Shown here: in pieces, positions 4,117 to 47,033 of the stretch | Numbering within the stretch: the stretch's first letter is position 1 | Layout: each line of letters begins with the position of its first letter | IMG/VR virus record: IMGVR_UViG_2667527965_000003 | Coordinates: 1 to 48,868 of that record | Strand: one strand, 5' to 3' | Source of the DNA: a virus | Taxonomy: Duplodnaviria; Heunggongvirae; Uroviricota; Caudoviricetes | DNA: 48,868 nucleotides | Notes under the pieces: model-generated | The model's database searches: none | What the model was told of the DNA's origin: nothing | Seen by the model: the letters and a program-made list of their open reading frames with translations, nothing else | Made by a program: the position numbers and the translations under genes

Positions 4117-7100
4117 TTATGCCTGAGTACGCAGCGCTTCAAGGCGGCGCAGGTCGAAGTCGTTCAGTTCGTCGGTGTAGTCTTCGGTGATCGGCGCTGG
4201 CCACTCGCCAGTGTCGAACGCGTTAGCGATGCGGTTCATCGTCTGGCGATACTCCAGCATCCCCAGCTCAATCAGTTCTTCGCTGGCCTCAACGATGGCG
4301 ATCCAGTGATAGCCCTCGTCTTTGTTGACGAAAATCCAGAAGAACTGGTCCAGGGCAGCGGTCTGCATGTACATGGCCGCGCTGAGGTGGTAATCGCGGT
4401 CGATGATTTCGCGGTGCAGGCGGGCGCGCAGGCCGGACTGCTTCACGTTCCACATGCTGATGGTTTTCAGGTCGGCACCTACGCGCACCGCCTCGATGTC
4501 GATTTCCAGATCCGGGCGCACGCGGATTTCCAGCCCGGTCTCTTCATCGATACCGAAATAGCTCGTCTCAACAGCGCGATCAGGGTGCAGCAGCAGTTTT
4601 CCGGCGGTCGGGTGCTCATGCAGCGCTTTCTGAATGGCCAGCGCCGTTTCCATCTGCTGGTGGGTCACCAGAATCTTGTCGCCCGGGTTCTCGCGCCATG
4701 CATCCAGCAGTTCGTCAGCGAATACGGCATCCGGCTTAACGGACTTCACTGCCTGGATCATCTCCGCTTTGGTGCCGGACACTTTCAGGGGTGCTGGTTT
4801 CTGCGCTTCCTGCGCCACTAGGTCAGGGTTGATGATCGCCAGCTGCTCCAGCAGCGCGTCACGGCTTCCGCTGGTTTTAACCGGCGCGGGCAGGGTGGCG
4901 TTGTACTCTTTGATGCAGGCCTTCATCGCGACAGCGGTCTGCTTCTGGTCTGCCTCGATACGCTGGAACTCAGCTGGCAGCGTCATATAGCTCTGCGCTG
5001 TTTCTTCCAGGCTCCCGCCCATCGGCACCTGCGCGGGCAGGGTGGCGTTGTACTCTTCAAGCAGCGCTTTAATATCGTCTGCGCTCAGCAGTGCGGGCAG
5101 GCTGGCGTTGTGTTCGTCGATAAAGGCGCGCAGGGTCGCCGCGGTGGTGAAGGCACCTTTCGGGATCATCGGCTCCACGCTGAACTCTTCGTCAAGGTTT
5201 TCCGGCTGCAGCGCCAGCGCATGCACCAGGTTCCCCATATCCAGCACTTTGGAGCCTTCGCGCGGGATGGTCTTGGCGACGTGGCGCGCGTTGAAGTACA
5301 TCAGGCTGACGCGGGCATCTTTCACCTGAGTGCTGCTGATCCCGTTCGCTGCGTGATAAACGTTATTCGGCAGGCCTTCATAGCGGCCCGGTTCGAAGTA
5401 CGCTGGGTATTCCGGGGCGCTGGCGGTTTCCTCCGGCGCTTCGGTGGTTACTTCCGGCGCAGTGGCGTTCGCCAGCTCCGGCGCCGCGGCGGCCAGCACC
5501 TCAGTTGGGTTCAGGGCATCTGTTTGCGTATCAGTTGCATCAGCGCTTTCGCCTGGTTGAACCGGGTTACCAGCTTCTCCTTCCGCCGGGTCAGTCGTTT
5601 CCATCTGCACATCGCTGGTGGTCTCCTCAGTAACCGGTGAGCGGTCATCGTTTTGTGGTTGTTTTTCGTTCATCAGGCCTTCGATGGAGTACATGCCTCC
5701 GCCGAGGTTCGCGACCTGCGGCTGGCTGGCGGCGGTCAGGTCCTCTTTAACCCACTTCGGATCGGCTGGGTCGCTGATGCCTTCCACGAATTCGCCGCGG
5801 TCGGCCGCCAGTTGCCCATCAACAAATTGGCTATCAATTTCAGGTTCAACTGGTGCAGGTAGTGGCAGCAATTCAACGGCAGCATTAAATTCAGCTGTCA
5901 TCGTCCGGTTCACGAACTCCAGATGCGCAGCAGGAGTCAGGTGGATATTCTCTGGCGCGATGCGTACCAGGTTGAAGATGGCCGCGCGGTTAACAGCCAG
6001 AACGCCGGGCTGGTTACGCAGGATTTTGCTCCACGACTTCCACGGCTCTTCTTTATTCGCGACGATATCTTTGGCGCGACGTATTACGCTTGATGAAATG
6101 TCGAAGTGGTGGGTGCAACCCTTGTCCTGCGCGCAGGCGATTTCCAGATCGAGGGTGTCCAGGGTGTGGTGTGCGCCTTCGCCGCGGTCAGTTACATACC
6201 CGCCGTCGGCATTGGTGCCTGCGTCAGTGCGCTGCACCAGGTTAATACGGTTACCGGCGGTCCACTCACGCGTCAGGATGCCGCGGTCAATATATGGTGT
6301 GGCTACCCAGGCCTTTGTGAACTGCAAAAGCAGGCCCAGCTCATGGCGCTTTTCCATGCTAAACACTTTGCGAATGGCGTTCGTGTAGCGCCAAAGGTCT
6401 TTGGTGTCGAAAGCTTTAACTTCCGGGAAATTTTCAGCAGCGAGCAGCAGATCCTGGACATAACCATTGTCGGTATCCATTTCCAGCGCATGCAGCTCTG
6501 CATTTTCGCTACGGGTGATGTGGTGGCGCAGTTCGTCCACCGTCAACTGGGCAAGCAGCTGTTTGCGGAATGGCATTTTGCAGACCGGATAGCGTGTTAA
6601 CCCATCGTCGTTTTTATTTACACGCAGGCCGTTTTCATACCAATGAGTCGGCTCATCCTTGGGTGGAAGCTTGCCGCTCTTCCAGTCTTCAACCAGCTGG
6701 TTGCGGTCATCGGCTTTAATCCAGCCCGACATGAAGGCGGCCAGCATCGCGGGTTCGTGTTCTTTGTCCTGGGGGAAAACGTCTTTGATGGCCTGCACCA
6801 GTTTCCACTCAGCATGCAGACTGAGGTCGCCAATATCCGCAACGTCATTTTTGGCCTGCAGCAGGTTCTGGAAATATGCATTCCCCTCATCGGTGGCCAG
6901 TTCATTGGCAACGATTTGCTGCTCCTGGCTGATCTCCGAAAGGTATTTATCACCCAACAGATGGACGGCGAAGCGGACAGCCGGGGTGCGATTTTCAAGC
7001 AGGGAGGTGTTGCCGGCGTTTGCGGTATCAGTGGCGGTCACCGACGCGTCAGGCAGTACCTCATCGCTGGTAGTCGCCGGGGCGAGGGCGGTCTCATCCT

Positions 7101-13552: not shown

Positions 13553-13759
13553 ATGGCTGATAAGTGTAACCGCTGCACAGTCGGCATGATCGGCACTAAA
13601 CCTATCCTGACGGGTGAATGGGCTGCGGCCTCAGCTGACTTTGACCGAGTGATTGCCGACTGGAACGAGCAAACCAAACGTTTTGCCGTTCCGCATCCTG
13701 GTTTCGCCCGTAAGTTCAATTACTGCCCGCACTGCGGGAGTAAGGTTGAAGGAGAGTGA
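13553..13759 (+). CDS. Small zinc-ribbon protein
   Basis: 68 aa from ATG at 13553; CNRC ... CPHC cysteine pairs. Confidence 0.4.
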   Translation: MADKCNRCTVGMIGTKPILTGEWAAASADFDRVIADWNEQTKRFAVPHPGFARKFNYCPHCGSKVEGE

Positions 13760-13761
13760 GC

Positions 13762-14508
13762 ATGGCAGAGCAAACCGTTTTGGATATGTGCTGCGGTTCC
13801 CGCATGTTCTGGTTCGATAAGCAGGATAAGCGCGCCGTATTCAGCGACATCCGCGCTGAGGAGCACACCCTTTGTGATGGACGCCATCTGGTCATCAGTC
13901 CGGATGTGATCGCCGACTTCCGTGCGCTGCCGTTCGCTGACAACACTTTCCCTGTGGTGGTGTTCGACCCGCCACATCTTGAACGTGTTGGTGACGATGC
14001 CTGGATGGGTAAGAAATACGGAAGGCTGAACAAAGATACCTGGCGCGACGACCTGCGCGCCGGGTTCAAAGAGTCGTTTCGCGTATTGCGGCCACACGGC
14101 GTTCTCATCTTCAAATGGAACGAAACGCAGATCCCTGTTAGCCAGGTTCTGGCGCTTACAGACGTTAAGCCAATCATCGGCCAGCGCACTGGAAAGAACG
14201 ACAAAACCCACTGGATTTCTTTCGTCAAAGACGGTGAGCAGCAGCAAAAATCTGACACGCAACTGCGATATGCCACAAAACGGATCGTCGAGCTGGAAAG
14301 CCTGCTGCTGGCGGACGTGACTGAAACCGTATGGCCTGCCGAAGTTGGCATGGTCTACGGCCAGATTGAAAACGCCGGGGATCTCCCGGCGCATCACCAG
14401 CGCCGCCTGAAACATCACATTAATCGAATGTGGCTGGAGAAAATGCCGGTGCCAGCCATCGTAACCGCGGCCCGGTCGCTGGCCGCCGCCATGGAGGAAT
14501 ACGCGTGA
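13762..14508 (+). CDS. Putative DNA amino-methyltransferase (N6-adenine or N4-cytosine)
   Basis: LDMCCGS near N-terminus and VVFDPPHL (DPPH-type motif IV); GGAGAG RBS before ATG at 13762. Confidence 0.55.
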   Translation: MAEQTVLDMCCGSRMFWFDKQDKRAVFSDIRAEEHTLCDGRHLVISPDVIADFRALPFADNTFPVVVFDPPHLERVGDDAWMGKKYGRLNKDTWRDDLRAGFKESFRVLRPHGVLIFKWNETQIPVSQVLALTDVKPIIGQRTGKNDKTHWISFVKDGEQQQKSDTQLRYATKRIVELESLLLADVTETVWPAEVGMVYGQIENAGDLPAHHQRRLKHHINRMWLEKMPVPAIVTAARSLAAAMEEYA

Positions 14509-16382
14509 GAGAAATTATCGTTGATAACTTTGCCGGCGGCGGCGGGGCGAGTACGGGTATCGAGCTGGCGATCGGCCGCAGCGTGGATATTGCCATCAAT
14601 CACGATCCGAACGCCGTGGCGATGCATACCACGAACCACCCGGACACGCTGCACTACTGCGAAAGCGTGTTTGATGTAAATCCCCTGGTGGCGACCGCAG
14701 GCCGCCCGGTGGGGCTGGCGTGGTTCTCCCCGGATTGTCGCCACTTTTCTAAGGCCAAAGGCTCGAAGCCGGTGGAGAAAGAAATCCGCGGTCTGGCGTG
14801 GATCGTCATTCGTTGGGCGCTGGCGGTTCGTCCTCGCGTGATGATGCTCGAGAACGTGGAAGAGTTCAAAACGTGGGGCCCGCTTATCGTATCGGCAGAC
14901 GGCGGACAGCGCCCGGACCCGGCCCGCGCCGGAGAAATCTTTGAGGCGTTCTGCGGCATGCTATCTGGCGGTATTCCTGCCGGGCATCCGGCGCTGGTGG
15001 AATGCTGTGAGTTTCTGGGCATTGCCGCCGATGGCGTGCAGGCGCAGCAGCTGGTGGCCGGACTGGGTTATGCCGTTGATCACCGAGAACTGCGCGCCTG
15101 CGACTTTGGCGCGCCGACCATCCGGAAGCGATTCTTCATGGTAATGCGCTGCGACGGCGTGCCGGTGACCTGGCCAGCGCCGACCCATGGGGATCCGAAA
15201 ACGCCAGCAGTGCAGGGCGGCAAACTGGCGTCATGGCGCACCGCGGCGGAATGTATCGACTGGTCTATCCCGGCGCAGTCCATCTTCGAACGCAAGAAGC
15301 CGCTGGCGGAGAACACGCTTAAGCGTATCGCGCGCGGCATCCAGCGCTTCGTGATTGATTGCGCCTCGCCGTTTATCGTTAAGTGCAACCACACCACGAC
15401 GAAAGGGAAATACGACTGCTTCCGCGGTCAGGCGCTGGCAGAGCCGCTGCAGACCATCACCAAAACGCATGGCTATGCGATCGCCACCCCCGTGATGGCT
15501 CCGCTGTTCGCTGGCACCGGTGGATCTGAATTCCAGATGAGGCCGCGCCCGGTAAACAAACCGTTCTTCACTCTGCTTACGCAGAACCGGACCAATGTCA
15601 TCGCGCCCGTACTGGCCCCATTGATCGCCCGGCAGTTCGGATCCAGCATCGGGCACCGCGCCGACGAACCGAGCGCCACGATCACCGCTGGTGGTGGTGG
15701 GAAATCGCAGCTGGTGTCCACGACAATGATCCAGATGGGTTACGGCGAACGCCCGGGACAGGAACCACGCGTACCGGGCCTGCATAAGCCGCTGGGCACG
15801 GTCGTCGCTGGCGGTGGTAAGTTCGGGTTGGTGGCAGCGAATCTGGTTAAGCACTTCGGCGGGAACTACCAGGGCGCTGGCGTGGCTCTGGACGAACCGG
15901 CACACACGGTCACCACCACGGATCACCATGGTCTGGTCACATCGCACCTGGTGTTGCTGCGCGGTACCTGCCGGGATGGCCGGGTAGTTGATGCGCCAGC
16001 GCCGGGATTAACCGCGGGCGGCCTGCATGTCGGGAACGTTGAGACCAGCCTGGCGACGGATGGCTATGACGAACAGCGCGCGGCGCAGGTGCTGGCGTTT
16101 TTGCGGGAGTATTGCGGGGCGGATTCTGACGGGCTGGTGACTGTTGATGGCGTGGTGTATCGCATAGTGGATATCGGCATGCGCATGCTGCAGCCAGCGG
16201 AACTGTACCGTGCGCAGGGCTTCCCGGAGTGGTACATCATCGACCAAGACTACCGCGGCGTGAAGTACGCGAAGGATAAGCAGGTAGCCCGCTGCGGTAA
16301 CGCCGTGCCGCCGCCATTCGCTGAGGCGCTGGTGCGGTCAAACCTGCCGGAGTTGTGTGACATGCGGGAGCGAGCTGCGTGA
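14505..16382 (+). CDS. DNA cytosine-5 methyltransferase
   Basis: GTG start at 14505 with GGAGGA RBS; motif I FAGGGGAS, catalytic motif IV SPDCRHFS, motif VI MMLENV, motif X RCGNAVPPPFAEAL; long variable region (625 aa). Confidence 0.75.
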   Translation: MREIIVDNFAGGGGASTGIELAIGRSVDIAINHDPNAVAMHTTNHPDTLHYCESVFDVNPLVATAGRPVGLAWFSPDCRHFSKAKGSKPVEKEIRGLAWIVIRWALAVRPRVMMLENVEEFKTWGPLIVSADGGQRPDPARAGEIFEAFCGMLSGGIPAGHPALVECCEFLGIAADGVQAQQLVAGLGYAVDHRELRACDFGAPTIRKRFFMVMRCDGVPVTWPAPTHGDPKTPAVQGGKLASWRTAAECIDWSIPAQSIFERKKPLAENTLKRIARGIQRFVIDCASPFIVKCNHTTTKGKYDCFRGQALAEPLQTITKTHGYAIATPVMAPLFAGTGGSEFQMRPRPVNKPFFTLLTQNRTNVIAPVLAPLIARQFGSSIGHRADEPSATITAGGGGKSQLVSTTMIQMGYGERPGQEPRVPGLHKPLGTVVAGGGKFGLVAANLVKHFGGNYQGAGVALDEPAHTVTTTDHHGLVTSHLVLLRGTCRDGRVVDAPAPGLTAGGLHVGNVETSLATDGYDEQRAAQVLAFLREYCGADSDGLVTVDGVVYRIVDIGMRMLQPAELYRAQGFPEWYIIDQDYRGVKYAKDKQVARCGNAVPPPFAEALVRSNLPELCDMRERAA

Positions 16383-16741
16383 TGATAAAATTAACCAGAG
16401 AGCTTATTGAGGATGCACTCATCAAATGTGAGTCGTGCAAAGACTCGGGGACATTCCCAGTTAGCGTAGAGGTAATTCGGGAGTTGGCGCTTTTAGCGTT
16501 GGCGGACATCGATTCAGACCAAAATGCAACGCTTCAACCTCAGGAAAGTTCTTGTGAGTCTGATTTGTTGCCAGTGGGTTGGGTGGTTGTGCCGGTGGAA
16601 ATGACTCCATCACAAATGAGAGCTATACAGTTAAGATCTGAGGTGGGTGGCTACATTACCTCGAATCTTACAGGTGCCTACTCGCTACTGTCTGAGCTTT
16701 GGGAAGTAGCTCTGGCAGCCGCACCTAAGCGTATGGGGTAG
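16379..16741 (+). CDS. Hypothetical acidic protein
   Basis: 120 aa, D/E-rich; lower GC than the upstream methyltransferase genes; hairpin terminator follows. Confidence 0.4.
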   Translation: MMIKLTRELIEDALIKCESCKDSGTFPVSVEVIRELALLALADIDSDQNATLQPQESSCESDLLPVGWVVVPVEMTPSQMRAIQLRSEVGGYITSNLTGAYSLLSELWEVALAAAPKRMG

Positions 16742-16907
16742 TATGGAAAGGGCTGAAAGAAGTCGGCCCTTTTACCCATGGTGGTAAAAATAGGGATCAT
16801 TTGAAGAAAGTTCAGGATAGTTGGCCTGTGTCAGAGAAACACATTTTAACGACTGCATAATGGGTTAAACCCGGTTATAAATACTTTTTCATTCAAGAAT
16901 TTAAAAA

Positions 16908-17690
16908 ATGAGCACAATAAATAAGCACGGACTTTCGCGTACAATACCTCCGTCCGTAAAACGATTAGTGCGGCAGAGATGTGGATTTGGATGCGTGATC
17001 TGCGGTTTTGGATTTTACGATTATGAGCATTTCGCTCCGGACTTTGCCGATGCCACAGAACACAACCCTGAAGGCATGACGTTATTGTGCTCTCAATGCA
17101 ATCAAAAACGTGCGCGTGGGCGCTTGTCAGCCCATACAGTTGCGGTCGCCAATGCCAACCCGAAGTGCCTGCAGCAAGGCTTCGCCAGTGAAATGTTCGA
17201 TTTTCACAGCGAACCTATCGAAATAAAATTCGCAGGCGTAACTTTTTATGACTGCAAGCATTTAATTGTTGTTAATGATCGCCCAATTTTATCGGTACGG
17301 CCAGCGATTGATGATAAGTCTCCCATTCTGCTTTCAGGCGTTTTTAGTGATCCTGCCGGCAGGGAGACCCTAATTATCAATGAAAATGAATGGTCAGTAG
17401 ATTCCGAATACTGGGATGTTGAGTGTGTAGGGCCAAGGATAATCATTCGAAGTTCACCGGGGCAGATAGTTCTCGTACTAAAAATGAACAGCCCTACAGG
17501 GATTGTAGTTGAACGCTTCGATATGCTTTTTGAGGGCGTCAGGCTAAGAGGGGACGAAGAGGCGCTACAGGTATGTTATGACGGTGAAAACTGGAATGAA
17601 TATGTGTGTCACAGCATAAGACATTGCAATACGGGTATAAATATCATTACGCGACCATGCGCAGCAAATGACCCGGTTTACGCTGCATAA
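16908..17690 (+). CDS. HNH-endonuclease-domain protein with unknown C-terminal domain
   Basis: N-terminal CGFGCVIC ... YEHF ... TEHNPEGMTLLCSQCNQ (Cys pairs with His/Asn typical of HNH); about 160-aa C-terminal region not recognised; low-GC gene. Confidence 0.5.
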   Translation: MSTINKHGLSRTIPPSVKRLVRQRCGFGCVICGFGFYDYEHFAPDFADATEHNPEGMTLLCSQCNQKRARGRLSAHTVAVANANPKCLQQGFASEMFDFHSEPIEIKFAGVTFYDCKHLIVVNDRPILSVRPAIDDKSPILLSGVFSDPAGRETLIINENEWSVDSEYWDVECVGPRIIIRSSPGQIVLVLKMNSPTGIVVERFDMLFEGVRLRGDEEALQVCYDGENWNEYVCHSIRHCNTGINIITRPCAANDPVYAA

Positions 17691-17796
17691 TCGTTAAACA
17701 TGAGCTACCAGAAAACCCTTTTACTTCAGCCTGTCGATTTAGCCAAAAGGCTGCCTACCATACAAGCGATATGGGAATCCCCATATCGACAGCTAG

Positions 17797-17817
17797 GGCC
17801 TCTCCGGAGGCCTTTTT
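17797..17817 (+). terminator. Rho-independent terminator after the HNH-domain gene
   Basis: GGCCTC-TCCG-GAGGCC hairpin followed by TTTTT. Confidence 0.6.
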
Positions 17818-18163
17818 CACGCCCGGTGAATAGGTGATTCGAGCATGATCGATAATACCGATCGATACAAGAATATTGATCTATGAAATCGATTATTAAA
17901 TAGACACAGAACAGCAACAAATTACCGAAGGGCACCCTCTGACGCAGACGAAATACCCTCTGTCGATAGTGACATCTTTGCCATTTATCTGGCGCCAGGC
18001 TTTCCGTACAGATATTTACGGTCGACATTTCTGACGTGAGCCTTTGTTAAAAATAACGATCACTTTTTACACGTAAGTAGCAATAAAATTTATTTAAATC
18101 AATCAGATGAATGGGCTTGCGCAGCCATGTACTTCATGTGCATACTTAAGCCAAACGAATAAA

Positions 18164-18183
18164 TACTGTTTATACATACAGTA
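18164..18183. promoter_or_regulatory. LexA (SOS) box
   Basis: TACTGTTTATACATACAGTA fits CTGT-N8-ACAG with AT-rich spacer (LexA consensus TACTGTATATATATACAGTA). Confidence 0.65.
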
Positions 18184-18201
18184 TTTTGTTGTATGGTTTA
18201 G

Positions 18202-18327
18202 ATGCTACAGAAAAAAATGAATTTTTCTTCCGGCGAACTTATTAGGAAATTTGCGCCATTTGTTATTTTGGCTCTGTGGAGTGGATTTCTCCCCGCCGGG
18301 AGAGCGTATTTGGTGATAGCAAAGTGA
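18202..18327 (+). CDS. Possible small hydrophobic peptide (41 aa), not in the ORF track
   Basis: ATG at 18202, stop at 18325-18327; MLQKKMNFSSGELIRKFAPFVILALWSGFLPAGRAYLVIAK; about 20 bp downstream of the LexA box; translation unproven. Confidence 0.25.
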   Translation: MLQKKMNFSSGELIRKFAPFVILALWSGFLPAGRAYLVIAK

Positions 18328-18336
18328 GGAGGGGAT

Positions 18337-18531
18337 GTGAGCATAGAGGTCGCCGAAGCGATTAAAACAGTCTCGGAGGGCGGTAAGTTCGTCATTACTT
18401 GCAATAATGGGGAAATTACCAGCCTGGAGCGCGTTAGGGACGATCAGCACGTTCTCTCGCTTGCTGAGTTACTCTACCTTCTTCGAGAAGCTGGGTTCCG
18501 CATTGACGGAGCGGATAGCCTACTGCCATAA
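18337..18531 (+). CDS. Hypothetical small protein (64 aa)
   Basis: GTG start with AGGAGG RBS at 18327-18332; downstream of the LexA box. Confidence 0.4.
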   Translation: MSIEVAEAIKTVSEGGKFVITCNNGEITSLERVRDDQHVLSLAELLYLLREAGFRIDGADSLLP

Positions 18532-18588
18532 TCCTCACGTCGCCTGAACAGCGACACGGAGCAGCAAAGCGCCACGGAGAAAGCTCCC

Positions 18589-19188
18589 ATGGCGCAGTTA
18601 CAACTCATCAAGCAGTCCTCAGGAATCCTGATCCCGGCCACGCCGGAGACCAGCGACTTTCTGCAATCAAAAATCAAGCTCGGCGCCGTGCTGGTGGCCG
18701 ACTTCAAACAGGTCCGTAACCCGGCCTTTCATCGTCGCTTCTTCGCTCTGCTGAATCTCGGCTTCGAATACTGGGAGCCAACCGGCGGCGCTATCTCATC
18801 CAACGAACGCAAGCTGGTGACCGGCTATGCGAAGTTTCTGGCATCGTTCGGCGGGAGCGAAACCGCGCTGCTGGATGCTGCTGAGCAGTATCTCGATCAG
18901 GTGGGCAGCCGCCGCATCACCAATGGCATCAGCCTGTGCAAATCCTTCGACGCCTATCGCGCATGGGTGACCATCGAATCCGGCCACTACGACACCATAC
19001 AGCTGCCTGACGGCATCCTCCGGAAGCATCCCCGCAGCATCGCCTTCGCCAATATGGACGAGACCGAGTTTCAGCAGCTCTACAAAGCCGCGCTCGATGT
19101 TCTGTGGCGCTGGATATTGTCGCGCGCATTCAGGGACCAGCGCGAGGCTGAGAACGCCGCCGCGCAGTTGATGAGCTTCGGAGGCTGA
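18589..19188 (+). CDS. DUF1367-like nin-region protein
   Basis: 199 aa; resembles a family commonly found in lambdoid nin regions (from memory). Confidence 0.5.
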   Translation: MAQLQLIKQSSGILIPATPETSDFLQSKIKLGAVLVADFKQVRNPAFHRRFFALLNLGFEYWEPTGGAISSNERKLVTGYAKFLASFGGSETALLDAAEQYLDQVGSRRITNGISLCKSFDAYRAWVTIESGHYDTIQLPDGILRKHPRSIAFANMDETEFQQLYKAALDVLWRWILSRAFRDQREAENAAAQLMSFGG

Positions 19189-19192
19189 CCAG

Positions 19193-19393
19193 ATGGCGAA
19201 ATCATGGTTCCAGCATACCGATTGCACTACGGCGCAGGCCGACGAACTGATGGCTACGTACCGGGCCCGCGGCGTGGCCGTTGAACGGAGCCTCAATCCT
19301 GACTTCATCACCTGGACCGTCAGCGTCCGGCTGCCGGAAGCAAAGCGGCAGGAACGCACGCCGCGTACGTTCCGCCAAAAGGTCTGGGGGTGA
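19193..19393 (+). CDS. Hypothetical small protein
   Basis: 66-aa ORF between DUF1367-like gene and ninG. Confidence 0.35.
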   Translation: MAKSWFQHTDCTTAQADELMATYRARGVAVERSLNPDFITWTVSVRLPEAKRQERTPRTFRQKVWG

Positions 19394-19395
19394 GC

Positions 19396-20001
19396 ATGTC
19401 TAAGAAACCCCGCCGTAAGTGCACAAACCAGAGCTGCCGCGAGTGGTTCCACCCGGTGCGCAACGGCCAGGTGGTCTGCTGCTACGAGTGCGCCACTGCC
19501 GTCGCCAAAGCGCAGACCGCAAAGAACCGGGCCGAGGCTCTGCGTGCTGAGAAGAAACGCCAGCGCGAAGAGGAGAAGGCGCAGCGTGCGCGGCAGGCCG
19601 AACGCCGCCAGGCGGTGAAGCCATTAAGTTACTTTCGCGACCAGGCCCAACAGGCTTTTAACGAGTTCATCCGATACCGGGATCGGCATCAGCCATGCAT
19701 CAGCTGTGGTCGATATCACTACGGTCAGTATCACGCCGGGCATTACCGCACGACTGGTGCCAATCCGGAGCTGCGCTTCAACGAGGACAACTGCCATAAG
19801 CAGTGTTCGGCCTGCAATAACCATCTTTCTGGCAACCTTACCGCCTACCGTCCGGCGTTGATCGCCAAAATCGGACAGGCCCGCTTTGATGCCCTGATGG
19901 GGCCGCACGAATTACCGAAATGGAAGCGCGACGACTACATCAGGATCCGCGACGAGTACCGCGCAAAGCTCAAAAAACTAAAACAGCAGGTGGCTGCATG
20001 A
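19396..20001 (+). CDS. ninG: NinG/Rap-like recombination-associated protein
   Basis: ATG at 19396; multiple Cys pairs (CTNQSC, CCYEC, CISC, CSAC) and basic Lys/Arg-rich stretch typical of NinG. Confidence 0.65.
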   Translation: MSKKPRRKCTNQSCREWFHPVRNGQVVCCYECATAVAKAQTAKNRAEALRAEKKRQREEEKAQRARQAERRQAVKPLSYFRDQAQQAFNEFIRYRDRHQPCISCGRYHYGQYHAGHYRTTGANPELRFNEDNCHKQCSACNNHLSGNLTAYRPALIAKIGQARFDALMGPHELPKWKRDDYIRIRDEYRAKLKKLKQQVAA

Positions 20002-47013: not shown

Positions 47014-47033
47014 TACTGTATATATAAACAGTA
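47014..47033. promoter_or_regulatory. LexA (SOS) box overlapping a promoter
   Basis: TACTGTATATATAAACAGTA, one mismatch from consensus; TTGATC -35-like hexamer 17 bp upstream; ATG of next gene 19 bp downstream. Confidence 0.7.

Follow-up and report, generated by a model that had tools for sequence, protein, structure and literature searches.

The stretch of viral DNA analyzed here (IMG/VR record IMGVR_UViG_2667527965_000003, positions 1 to 48,868; the whole stretch of 48,868 nucleotides is called the window below) is a complete lambdoid prophage. This study concerns two small genes located after its DNA methyltransferase genes, an open reading frame (ORF) of 120 amino acids (aa) followed by one of 260 aa, and in particular the 260-aa protein, which combines a predicted N-terminal HNH domain with an all-beta C-terminal domain and belongs to a large two-domain family that we designate HNH-beta. 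A preliminary description of this DNA, made from the sequence only, had regarded the two genes as an accessory module, either a defence or anti-defence pair or a homing endonuclease. Both ORFs were found at the positions and with the lengths it had reported (Table 1), and the lower GC content that it had noted relative to the methyltransferase genes was also observed: GC content fell from 0.62–0.64 in the C5 methyltransferase gene to 0.42–0.46 over positions 16501–18500, and was 0.461 in the 260-aa gene compared with 0.565 in its 3-kb flanks. Similarly, the HNH-beta gene had a lower GC content than its flanks in all 11 loci tested. In nucleotide searches the region had no match among 50,697 phage records, and E. 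coli genomes yielded fragments of it only; the sequences of the window itself were absent from the collections, where the closest protein match was 94% identical.

Table 1. Features of the cassette (upper rows) and of other parts of the window (lower rows). Domain and terminator assignments are predictions.
Feature	Position	Strand	Remark
260-aa ORF	16908–17690	+	HNH-beta protein
HNH (beta-beta-alpha-metal) nuclease domain, residues 1–85	16908–17162	+	
All-beta C-terminal domain (residues ~86–250), short tail and stop codon	17163–17690	+	
120-aa ORF (119 aa from ATG 16382)	16379–16741	+	mosaic protein, Ead/Ea22-type C-terminal module
3' part of 120-aa gene, conserved C-terminal module	16569–16741	+	left edge of mosaic cassette
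Intrinsic-terminator-like hairpin after 120-aa gene	16747–16773	+	
AT-rich spacer upstream of nuclease gene	16774–16907		promoter possible
68-bp double-hairpin terminator element	17755–17822	+	right cassette edge; hairpins 17767–17788 and 17795–17814, then U run
DNA methyltransferase gene 1	13756–14508		
C5 methyltransferase gene, 650 aa	14430–16382		
NinG, bona fide	19390–20001		separate from 260-aa gene
Replication genes	in window		part of lambdoid prophage gene set
Ead/Ea22-like gene	in window		prophage gene set
DUF1367 gene, Q-like antiterminator, terminase, further late-gene-sized ORFs	in window		

The 260-aa protein contains the motifs CGFGCVIC (residues 25–32), YEHF (39–42), TEHNP (50–54) and CSQCNQ (61–66), previously read as an HNH-like signature. 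It had no Pfam match at E ≤ 0.1 and none in NCBIfam or PADLOC, and its matches to HNH PHROGs were weak (E 0.004–0.06). A full-length match was obtained with PHROG 6544 (E = 4.3e-101, residues 1–254 on positions 1–247 of 248), which is annotated without function and so names the family without explaining it. Assignment to HNH by Pfam profile thus failed for the window protein itself and succeeded for its relatives, as the gathering cut-off of PF01844 (21.4 bits) was passed by the protein of locus L103 (24.9) and by P0199 (25.0). Searches of PDB gave no match with the single sequence and only an insignificant match to the IscB HNH domain with the family profile (E = 0.19). However, the alignment-based AlphaFold (AF2) model was of high quality (predicted local distance difference test score, pLDDT, 90.7; predicted template modeling score, pTM, 0.83), and Foldseek matched its N-terminal domain to HNH proteins in PDB and among viral models, including NinG, at a probability of 0.98–1.0. 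The closest structural matches were Cap5 of the cyclic-oligonucleotide-based antiphage signaling system (CBASS) and McrA, and the HNH domains of McrA, TagI, ScoMcrA and VcaM4I were among the best. Since the fold match was accompanied by relatives above the Pfam cut-off, we consider the prediction of a beta-beta-alpha-metal HNH domain sound on fold and family grounds even though the window protein fails the Pfam test.

Residue conservation also bore out the HNH-like signature. Among 47 close relatives, C25, C29, C32, E40, H41, H52, C61 and N65 were invariant and C64 nearly so, and among members sharing 33–69% identity H41, H52, C29, C61, N160 and D170 were invariant. By motif alignment, which was used to assign the catalytic His and the metal and zinc ligands, the close subfamily has N65 as its last metal ligand; in distant members this position is mostly His, and the last motif is mostly a canonical CxxCH. 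The protein is therefore predicted, from the model and these residues, to be a metal-dependent nuclease. Paralogy with NinG was considered and rejected, as the similarity was at the motif level only; the same level of similarity was observed for the lambdoid NinG/Rap and P1 Ref HNH nucleases in general, which have no beta domain. The remainder of the protein, about 160 aa that had been described as unrecognised, stayed so in Pfam, NCBIfam and PADLOC: it forms an all-beta domain of ~165 residues with ~17 strands over residues ~92–250 in the model, and no match above noise was found for it in structure searches of PDB or BFVD.

The HNH-beta family proved to be large. A word-indexed search yielded 415 clusters at 90% identity, of which the best 120 were 247–317 aa long (mostly 247–272), were mostly named “hypothetical protein” and came from Enterobacteriaceae, Burkholderia, Pseudomonas, Comamonas and others; Klebsiella, Enterobacter and E. 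coli are among the genera and species with members. When a profile of the beta domain only was searched against 1.84 billion representatives, 1,471 clusters at 50% identity were found at E ≤ 1e-3 and 754 at E ≤ 1e-10. Almost every full-length match of this sequence profile, on which the architecture survey rests, had the beta domain starting at residue ~85–90, indicating that it follows the HNH domain and that the architecture is fixed. Some members carried additional C-terminal tails, i.e., a SEC-C motif, TPR repeats or a CxxCxxCC domain. Ten distant members searched against PADLOC showed nothing significant on the HNH-beta core, the matches being to SEC-C tails and, below threshold, to HNH motifs (E 0.003–0.006). 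Comparison with the E. coli homologue at locus L011 gave ratios of nonsynonymous to synonymous substitution rates of ~0.07 for the HNH domain and ~0.10 for the beta domain; relative to all other loci, synonymous sites were saturated and protein identity stayed above 40%. Both domains are thus under strong purifying selection. We found no description of the HNH-beta family in the literature.

Genomic contexts were compared in 93 loci, comprising 80 IMG/VR contigs together with genomes and metagenomes (a single-sequence scan of the genome collection returned one locus). Of these, 90 yielded the HNH ORF, and the ORFs fell into 37 clades at 90% identity; gene orientation is cited only for loci with independently called genes. 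In lambdoid prophages, the HNH-beta gene was always located between the replication genes and the nin region, and its distribution among related prophages at this one slot was patchy. Elsewhere it occurred in very different settings: in a filamentous prophage between the integrase and Zot genes and antiparallel to both, in integrase-adjacent islands of Burkholderia and Pseudomonas, in a two-gene chromosomal islet of Comamonas together with a divergent XRE-type regulator, in one case 5 bp downstream of uvrA, and at further solitary chromosomal sites. In the prophage remnant L019, the gene and ~100 nt upstream of it survive beside an integrase gene. The preliminary description had suggested a comparison of neighbourhoods across related prophages, and no conservation emerged: the immediate neighbours in the 90 loci formed 38 upstream and 43 downstream clusters, and hence there is no conserved partner. 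On this basis the 260-aa gene appears to be a self-contained prophage cargo gene. Two further observations were made near its relatives. In Enterobacter loci L016–L020, the HNH-beta gene is followed at ~1–5 kb by genes for a 459-aa RES-domain protein and a 476-aa protein without domain matches, in complete prophages as well as in the prophage remnant; neither matches PADLOC, and both are possible additional cargo of an uncharacterised defence or toxin type. Besides, at the chromosomal locus of a distant member (402 aa; L114), a DUF3800 gene lies immediately upstream (5991–6827).

Edges of the cassette could be located by comparison with other prophages. Similarity to the latter begins in the middle of the 120-aa ORF, at 16569 for L011 and at 16589 for L033, and for L033 it stops at 17819; the simplest reading is a mosaic cassette of ~16570–17820 whose left homology arm is the sequence coding for the C-terminal module of the 120-aa protein. 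Each of the two genes had been said to have its own terminator, and both hairpins are real: the 48-nt stretch holding the first folds at −20.5 kcal/mol (z = −3.7 versus shuffled sequence), and the double hairpin at 17767–17819 folds at −28.7 kcal/mol (z = −5.0). The second, however, is not specific to the 260-aa gene. The element containing it was found, 97% identical, between the last accessory gene and ninB/YbcN in a prophage of E. coli ABWA45 that has no HNH-beta gene, and a second E. coli prophage (L027) shares the sequence from 17797 onward and has other genes upstream. Its position between the accessory genes and the nin genes is one that we take to be that of lambda tR2. The element thus belongs to the shared phage backbone, and the nuclease gene sits in a variable slot just upstream; the right-hand terminator of the cassette is the shared pre-nin terminator of lambdoid phages. 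Within the 166-bp spacer before the 260-aa gene, no consensus sigma-70 promoter was detected by either a promoter scan or a relaxed scan (best hit 8/12). In Enterobacter loci, ~100 nt 5' of the HNH-beta gene move with the gene even where the upstream gene differs. An Rfam search of positions 15500–19500 gave no match, and thus no known RNA was found in the 650-nt gap after the 260-aa gene.

The 120-aa protein did not have the properties expected of a dedicated partner. It had been described as strongly acidic and hence as a possible DNA mimic or immunity partner, but it is only mildly so (isoelectric point 4.38; 17 D+E versus 9 K+R), and its AF2 model is of low confidence (pLDDT 62), with four helices and a disordered linker at residues 49–61; an immunity or DNA-mimic role was not supported. 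Its likely start is ATG 16382, which overlaps the methyltransferase stop codon (TGA 16380–16382) and is in line with P0123 starting with MIKL; because of this overlap, the gene looks translationally coupled to the methyltransferase gene rather than an independent unit. Only 9 homologues were found, whose common part is the C-terminal ~55 aa and whose N-terminal halves are unrelated between loci. Over its last 57 aa, the 120-aa protein shares 63% identity with the C-terminal end of gp21 of phage Sf6, which is annotated as ead/Ea22-like and lies in the early-left operon with a Lar-like gene after it and no HNH gene; the 120-aa protein itself had no match to Pfam Ead_Ea22 and none elsewhere in Pfam, NCBIfam or PADLOC. 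In 13 of the 93 loci, representing at least 8 HNH clades, this C-terminal module precedes the HNH gene by 106–196 bp, and its identity across loci (38–95%) diverged roughly in step with that of the HNH gene. On the other hand, it was missing in the remaining 80 loci, including phage ST846-OXA48phi9.2 (L001), whose HNH gene belongs to a 90%-identity clade in which other members have the module. The linkage between module and HNH gene is therefore real but partial, and comparison of these sequences suggests that the 120-aa protein is an unrelated mosaic phage protein and not a dedicated partner of the nuclease.

Methyltransferase genes near the HNH-beta gene were also variable. A DNA methyltransferase gene was present within 3 kb in 23 of 93 loci and 16 of 37 clades, in either orientation, and belonged to five types (long C5, short C5, D12, MT-A70 and phrog_954). 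Its type and its presence varied even within single clades at 90% identity, one being present, for example, in 2 of 9, 2 of 8 and 1 of 7 loci. A cognate Type II restriction-modification system formed with the adjacent methyltransferases was ruled out by this variable linkage, and the co-occurrence fits two kinds of accessory gene that share variable slots. The C5 methyltransferase of the window is itself unusually long. Its best Pfam stretch covers residues 31–147 only (profile positions 4–115 of 324), and PHROG DNA-methyltransferase families match it from residues 27–29 on and over residues 486–649, with the middle poorly matched; it might be a multispecific phage enzyme. Homologues of 680–790 aa are encoded near the HNH-beta gene, on the opposite strand, in IMG/VR prophage contigs L087–L100.

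Several relatives of the 260-aa gene were found in neighbourhoods associated with defence. In nine loci, which belong to two separate clades, P2-like prophages carry the HNH-beta gene between gpA and the portal gene. One is L034, where the protein shares 69% identity with that of the window and the interval contains no other convincing ORF; in L103–L110 the protein is 42% identical. This gpA-portal interval, the site of old and tin in P2, has been described as a defence hotspot (Rousset et al.). Cargo beside the HNH-beta gene in this hotspot included AbiU, a type I-C retron reverse transcriptase-Toprim protein (E = 3e-223), a PD-T7-4-like gene and PDC-M11A, and ShosTA lies 1.3 kb from the HNH-beta gene at Burkholderia locus L009. 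In the P4 satellite hotspot, 6 of 8 randomly picked unknown loci gave protection against phages in a recent study. Residence in a defence hotspot was observed for the relatives only. In the window the gene occupies a variable accessory slot, between the replication genes and tR2, that is not a documented defence hotspot, and in this respect the window copy, sitting in a lambdoid prophage, differs from the cargo of the P2 gpA-gpQ interval (old, tin and the systems of Rousset et al.) among which its relatives are found. The association of HNH-beta with defence is thus one of guilt by location only. The same P2-like hotspot held other genes beside the HNH-beta gene, namely a three-gene set (371, 148 and 221 aa) at L105 6073–8300 and a single 216-aa gene at L107 6420–7070; as they have no PADLOC match, they are possible unknown defence systems.

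Taking the domain architecture and the contexts together, we propose that the 260-aa gene may encode a single-protein nuclease of a large uncharacterised family that protects the lysogen against other phages or mobile DNA, the most likely of the readings considered and one that in our judgment could equally well prove right or wrong. Of the earlier idea of a defence or anti-defence pair, the defence role is the best-supported part, given the relatives in defence hotspots, whereas the pair was not supported, no conserved partner being present. A solitary nuclease without a partner would have to be either specific or held inactive. Both the partner-less state and the parallels with Cap5 and McrA led us to propose that the beta domain acts as a gate or a targeting device for the HNH domain. 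DNA would be cut by the N-terminal HNH domain, which resembles those of Cap5 and McrA, and the C-terminal beta domain would hold the nuclease in check until bound to an infection-specific cue or, alternatively, would direct it to foreign DNA, e.g., modified DNA. The outcome would be protection of the lysogen, and hence of the prophage, from other phages or mobile DNA. In this scheme we infer nuclease activity, a defence phenotype, a sensor or targeting role of the beta domain and expression in the lysogen. CBASS Cap5 (HNH-SAVED) offers the nearest parallel, as it also joins an N-terminal HNH nuclease and a C-terminal regulatory domain in one polypeptide; however, its C-terminal domain is SAVED rather than the all-beta fold of the 260-aa protein, and no cyclase (cGAS/DncV-like nucleotidyltransferase, CD-NTase) was found among the annotated neighbours of HNH-beta genes. 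More broadly and more tentatively, with the balance tilting somewhat against it, HNH-beta might be an undescribed, widespread family of single-protein anti-phage immunity, in which a novel all-beta sensor or targeting module (with invariant Asn160 and Asp170) is joined to a Cap5-like HNH effector; the family would move between chromosomal islands and prophages of the lambdoid, P2-like and filamentous kinds.

A number of observations weigh against a defence role. Hotspots also carry cargo unrelated to defence, and in L103–L110 the HNH-beta gene is constant and the neighbouring cargo varies, such that the gene could serve the phage itself. The 260-aa gene is co-oriented with the early-right operon and lacks a recognisable promoter, and it may therefore be expressed only in lytic growth. 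Some distant members lack the second zinc-binding Cys pair. In addition, the family is not recognised by PADLOC 2023 (PADLOC-DB v2.0.0), matching none of its 5,027 models, nor by NCBIfam 2026. The defence reading is accordingly that of a candidate worth experimental study, not of an established system.

Among the alternatives, the first is that the gene serves the phage as a lytic DNA-processing nuclease expressed by antitermination from the early-right operon. Such a nuclease might act on recombination or replication intermediates in the manner of NinG/Rap or P1 Ref, or else degrade the DNA of the host or of competitors. Its orientation along with the replication and nin genes, its location upstream of the tR2-like terminator without a consensus promoter and its constancy in the P2-like clade L103–L110 are all consistent with such a role. 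However, the window has its own NinG, to which the 260-aa protein is similar at the motif level only; the gene is kept in a prophage remnant and in chromosomal islets that have no phage replication genes; and the filamentous-phage copy runs antiparallel to the phage genes. Patchy distribution among related prophages and low GC content likewise mark it as cargo, and we consider a lytic role unlikely.

The second alternative is itself a form of defence, i.e., a Type IV modification-dependent restriction nuclease in which recognition of a modified base by the beta domain would be followed by cleavage by the HNH domain. Enzymes of the McrA type (EcoKMcrA, TagI, ScoMcrA and VcaM4I) are, like HNH-beta, solitary nucleases that need no methyltransferase, and the structural similarity of their HNH domains to that of the 260-aa protein points in the same direction. 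McrA is also prophage-borne, being encoded by prophage e14. In contrast to the 260-aa protein, these enzymes have the reader domain first and HNH second, and structure searches revealed no SRA, PUA-like or other known modified-base reader in the beta domain. Moreover, phage methyltransferases of several types lie close by in 23 of the 93 loci, which would create a risk of self-restriction. This possibility was judged improbable; the beta domain might nevertheless be a novel kind of reader.

A smaller chance still was given to a free-standing HNH homing endonuclease, or a purely selfish gene, that spreads by cutting genomes without it, as the preliminary description had also considered. Sporadic occurrence among related prophages at one slot, low GC content, a cassette with defined edges and the HNH domain itself would all be expected of such an element. 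Against this, the flanks are variable accessory genes with no conserved target gene, the genomic contexts are many and unrelated, no NUMOD, IENR1 or helix-turn-helix modules were found in the Pfam search, and the C-terminal domain is all-beta; strong purifying selection on both domains and an architecture fixed across 1,471 clusters argue in the same sense. Finally, a unit in which the 120-aa protein is an immunity, antitoxin or DNA-mimic partner, or in which the nuclease and the adjacent methyltransferases form a restriction-modification pair, is very improbable, since the upstream module seen in at least 8 HNH clades and the methyltransferases seen in 16 of 37 come and go within single clades and the module also ends Sf6 gp21 where there is no HNH gene.

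If the defence reading of the 260-aa gene holds, the bacterial immune repertoire would gain a nuclease system that is encoded by one compact gene (~250 aa) and senses or targets by means of a new fold, and the target of the beta domain would reveal how a nuclease without a partner stays harmless to its own cell. At present, genomes that carry the family look blank at the locus to PADLOC 2023 and NCBIfam 2026. Even if defence fails, the idea of an acidic partner is retired and the right-hand terminator is revealed as the shared pre-nin terminator.

Additional features were noticed in the sequence that follows this terminator. The window contains two perfect LexA-box-like sites (TACTG-N10-CAGTA) at 18164–18183 and 47014–47033, where 0.66 would be expected by chance; two or more were found in 17 of 100 shuffles. 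The first is located between the tR2-like terminator and a 64-aa PHROG 340 gene (18337–18531) and is kept in L011, L032, L027 and L041. A 41-aa ORF just downstream of this site (18202–18327) is probably not a gene: L032, L027 and L041 retain the LexA box but carry a disrupted version of the ORF, and the possibility that it encodes a small SOS-induced toxin was therefore discarded. Under control of the LexA box, an SOS-induced transcript may extend into the nin region, or a short RNA may be made that stops at the hairpin at 18287–18304. In phage ST846-OXA48phi9.2, dinI is found in the corresponding interval. Just past the terminator, positions 17847–17893 form the densest GATC cluster of the window, with three GATC within 32 bp, and overlap three of the 20 ATCGAT palindromes present in the whole window. 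This cluster, which could be a Dam/SeqA-sensitive or regulator-binding site, lies within a segment (17755–17924) that is 89% identical to L011, where by eye it is almost unchanged.

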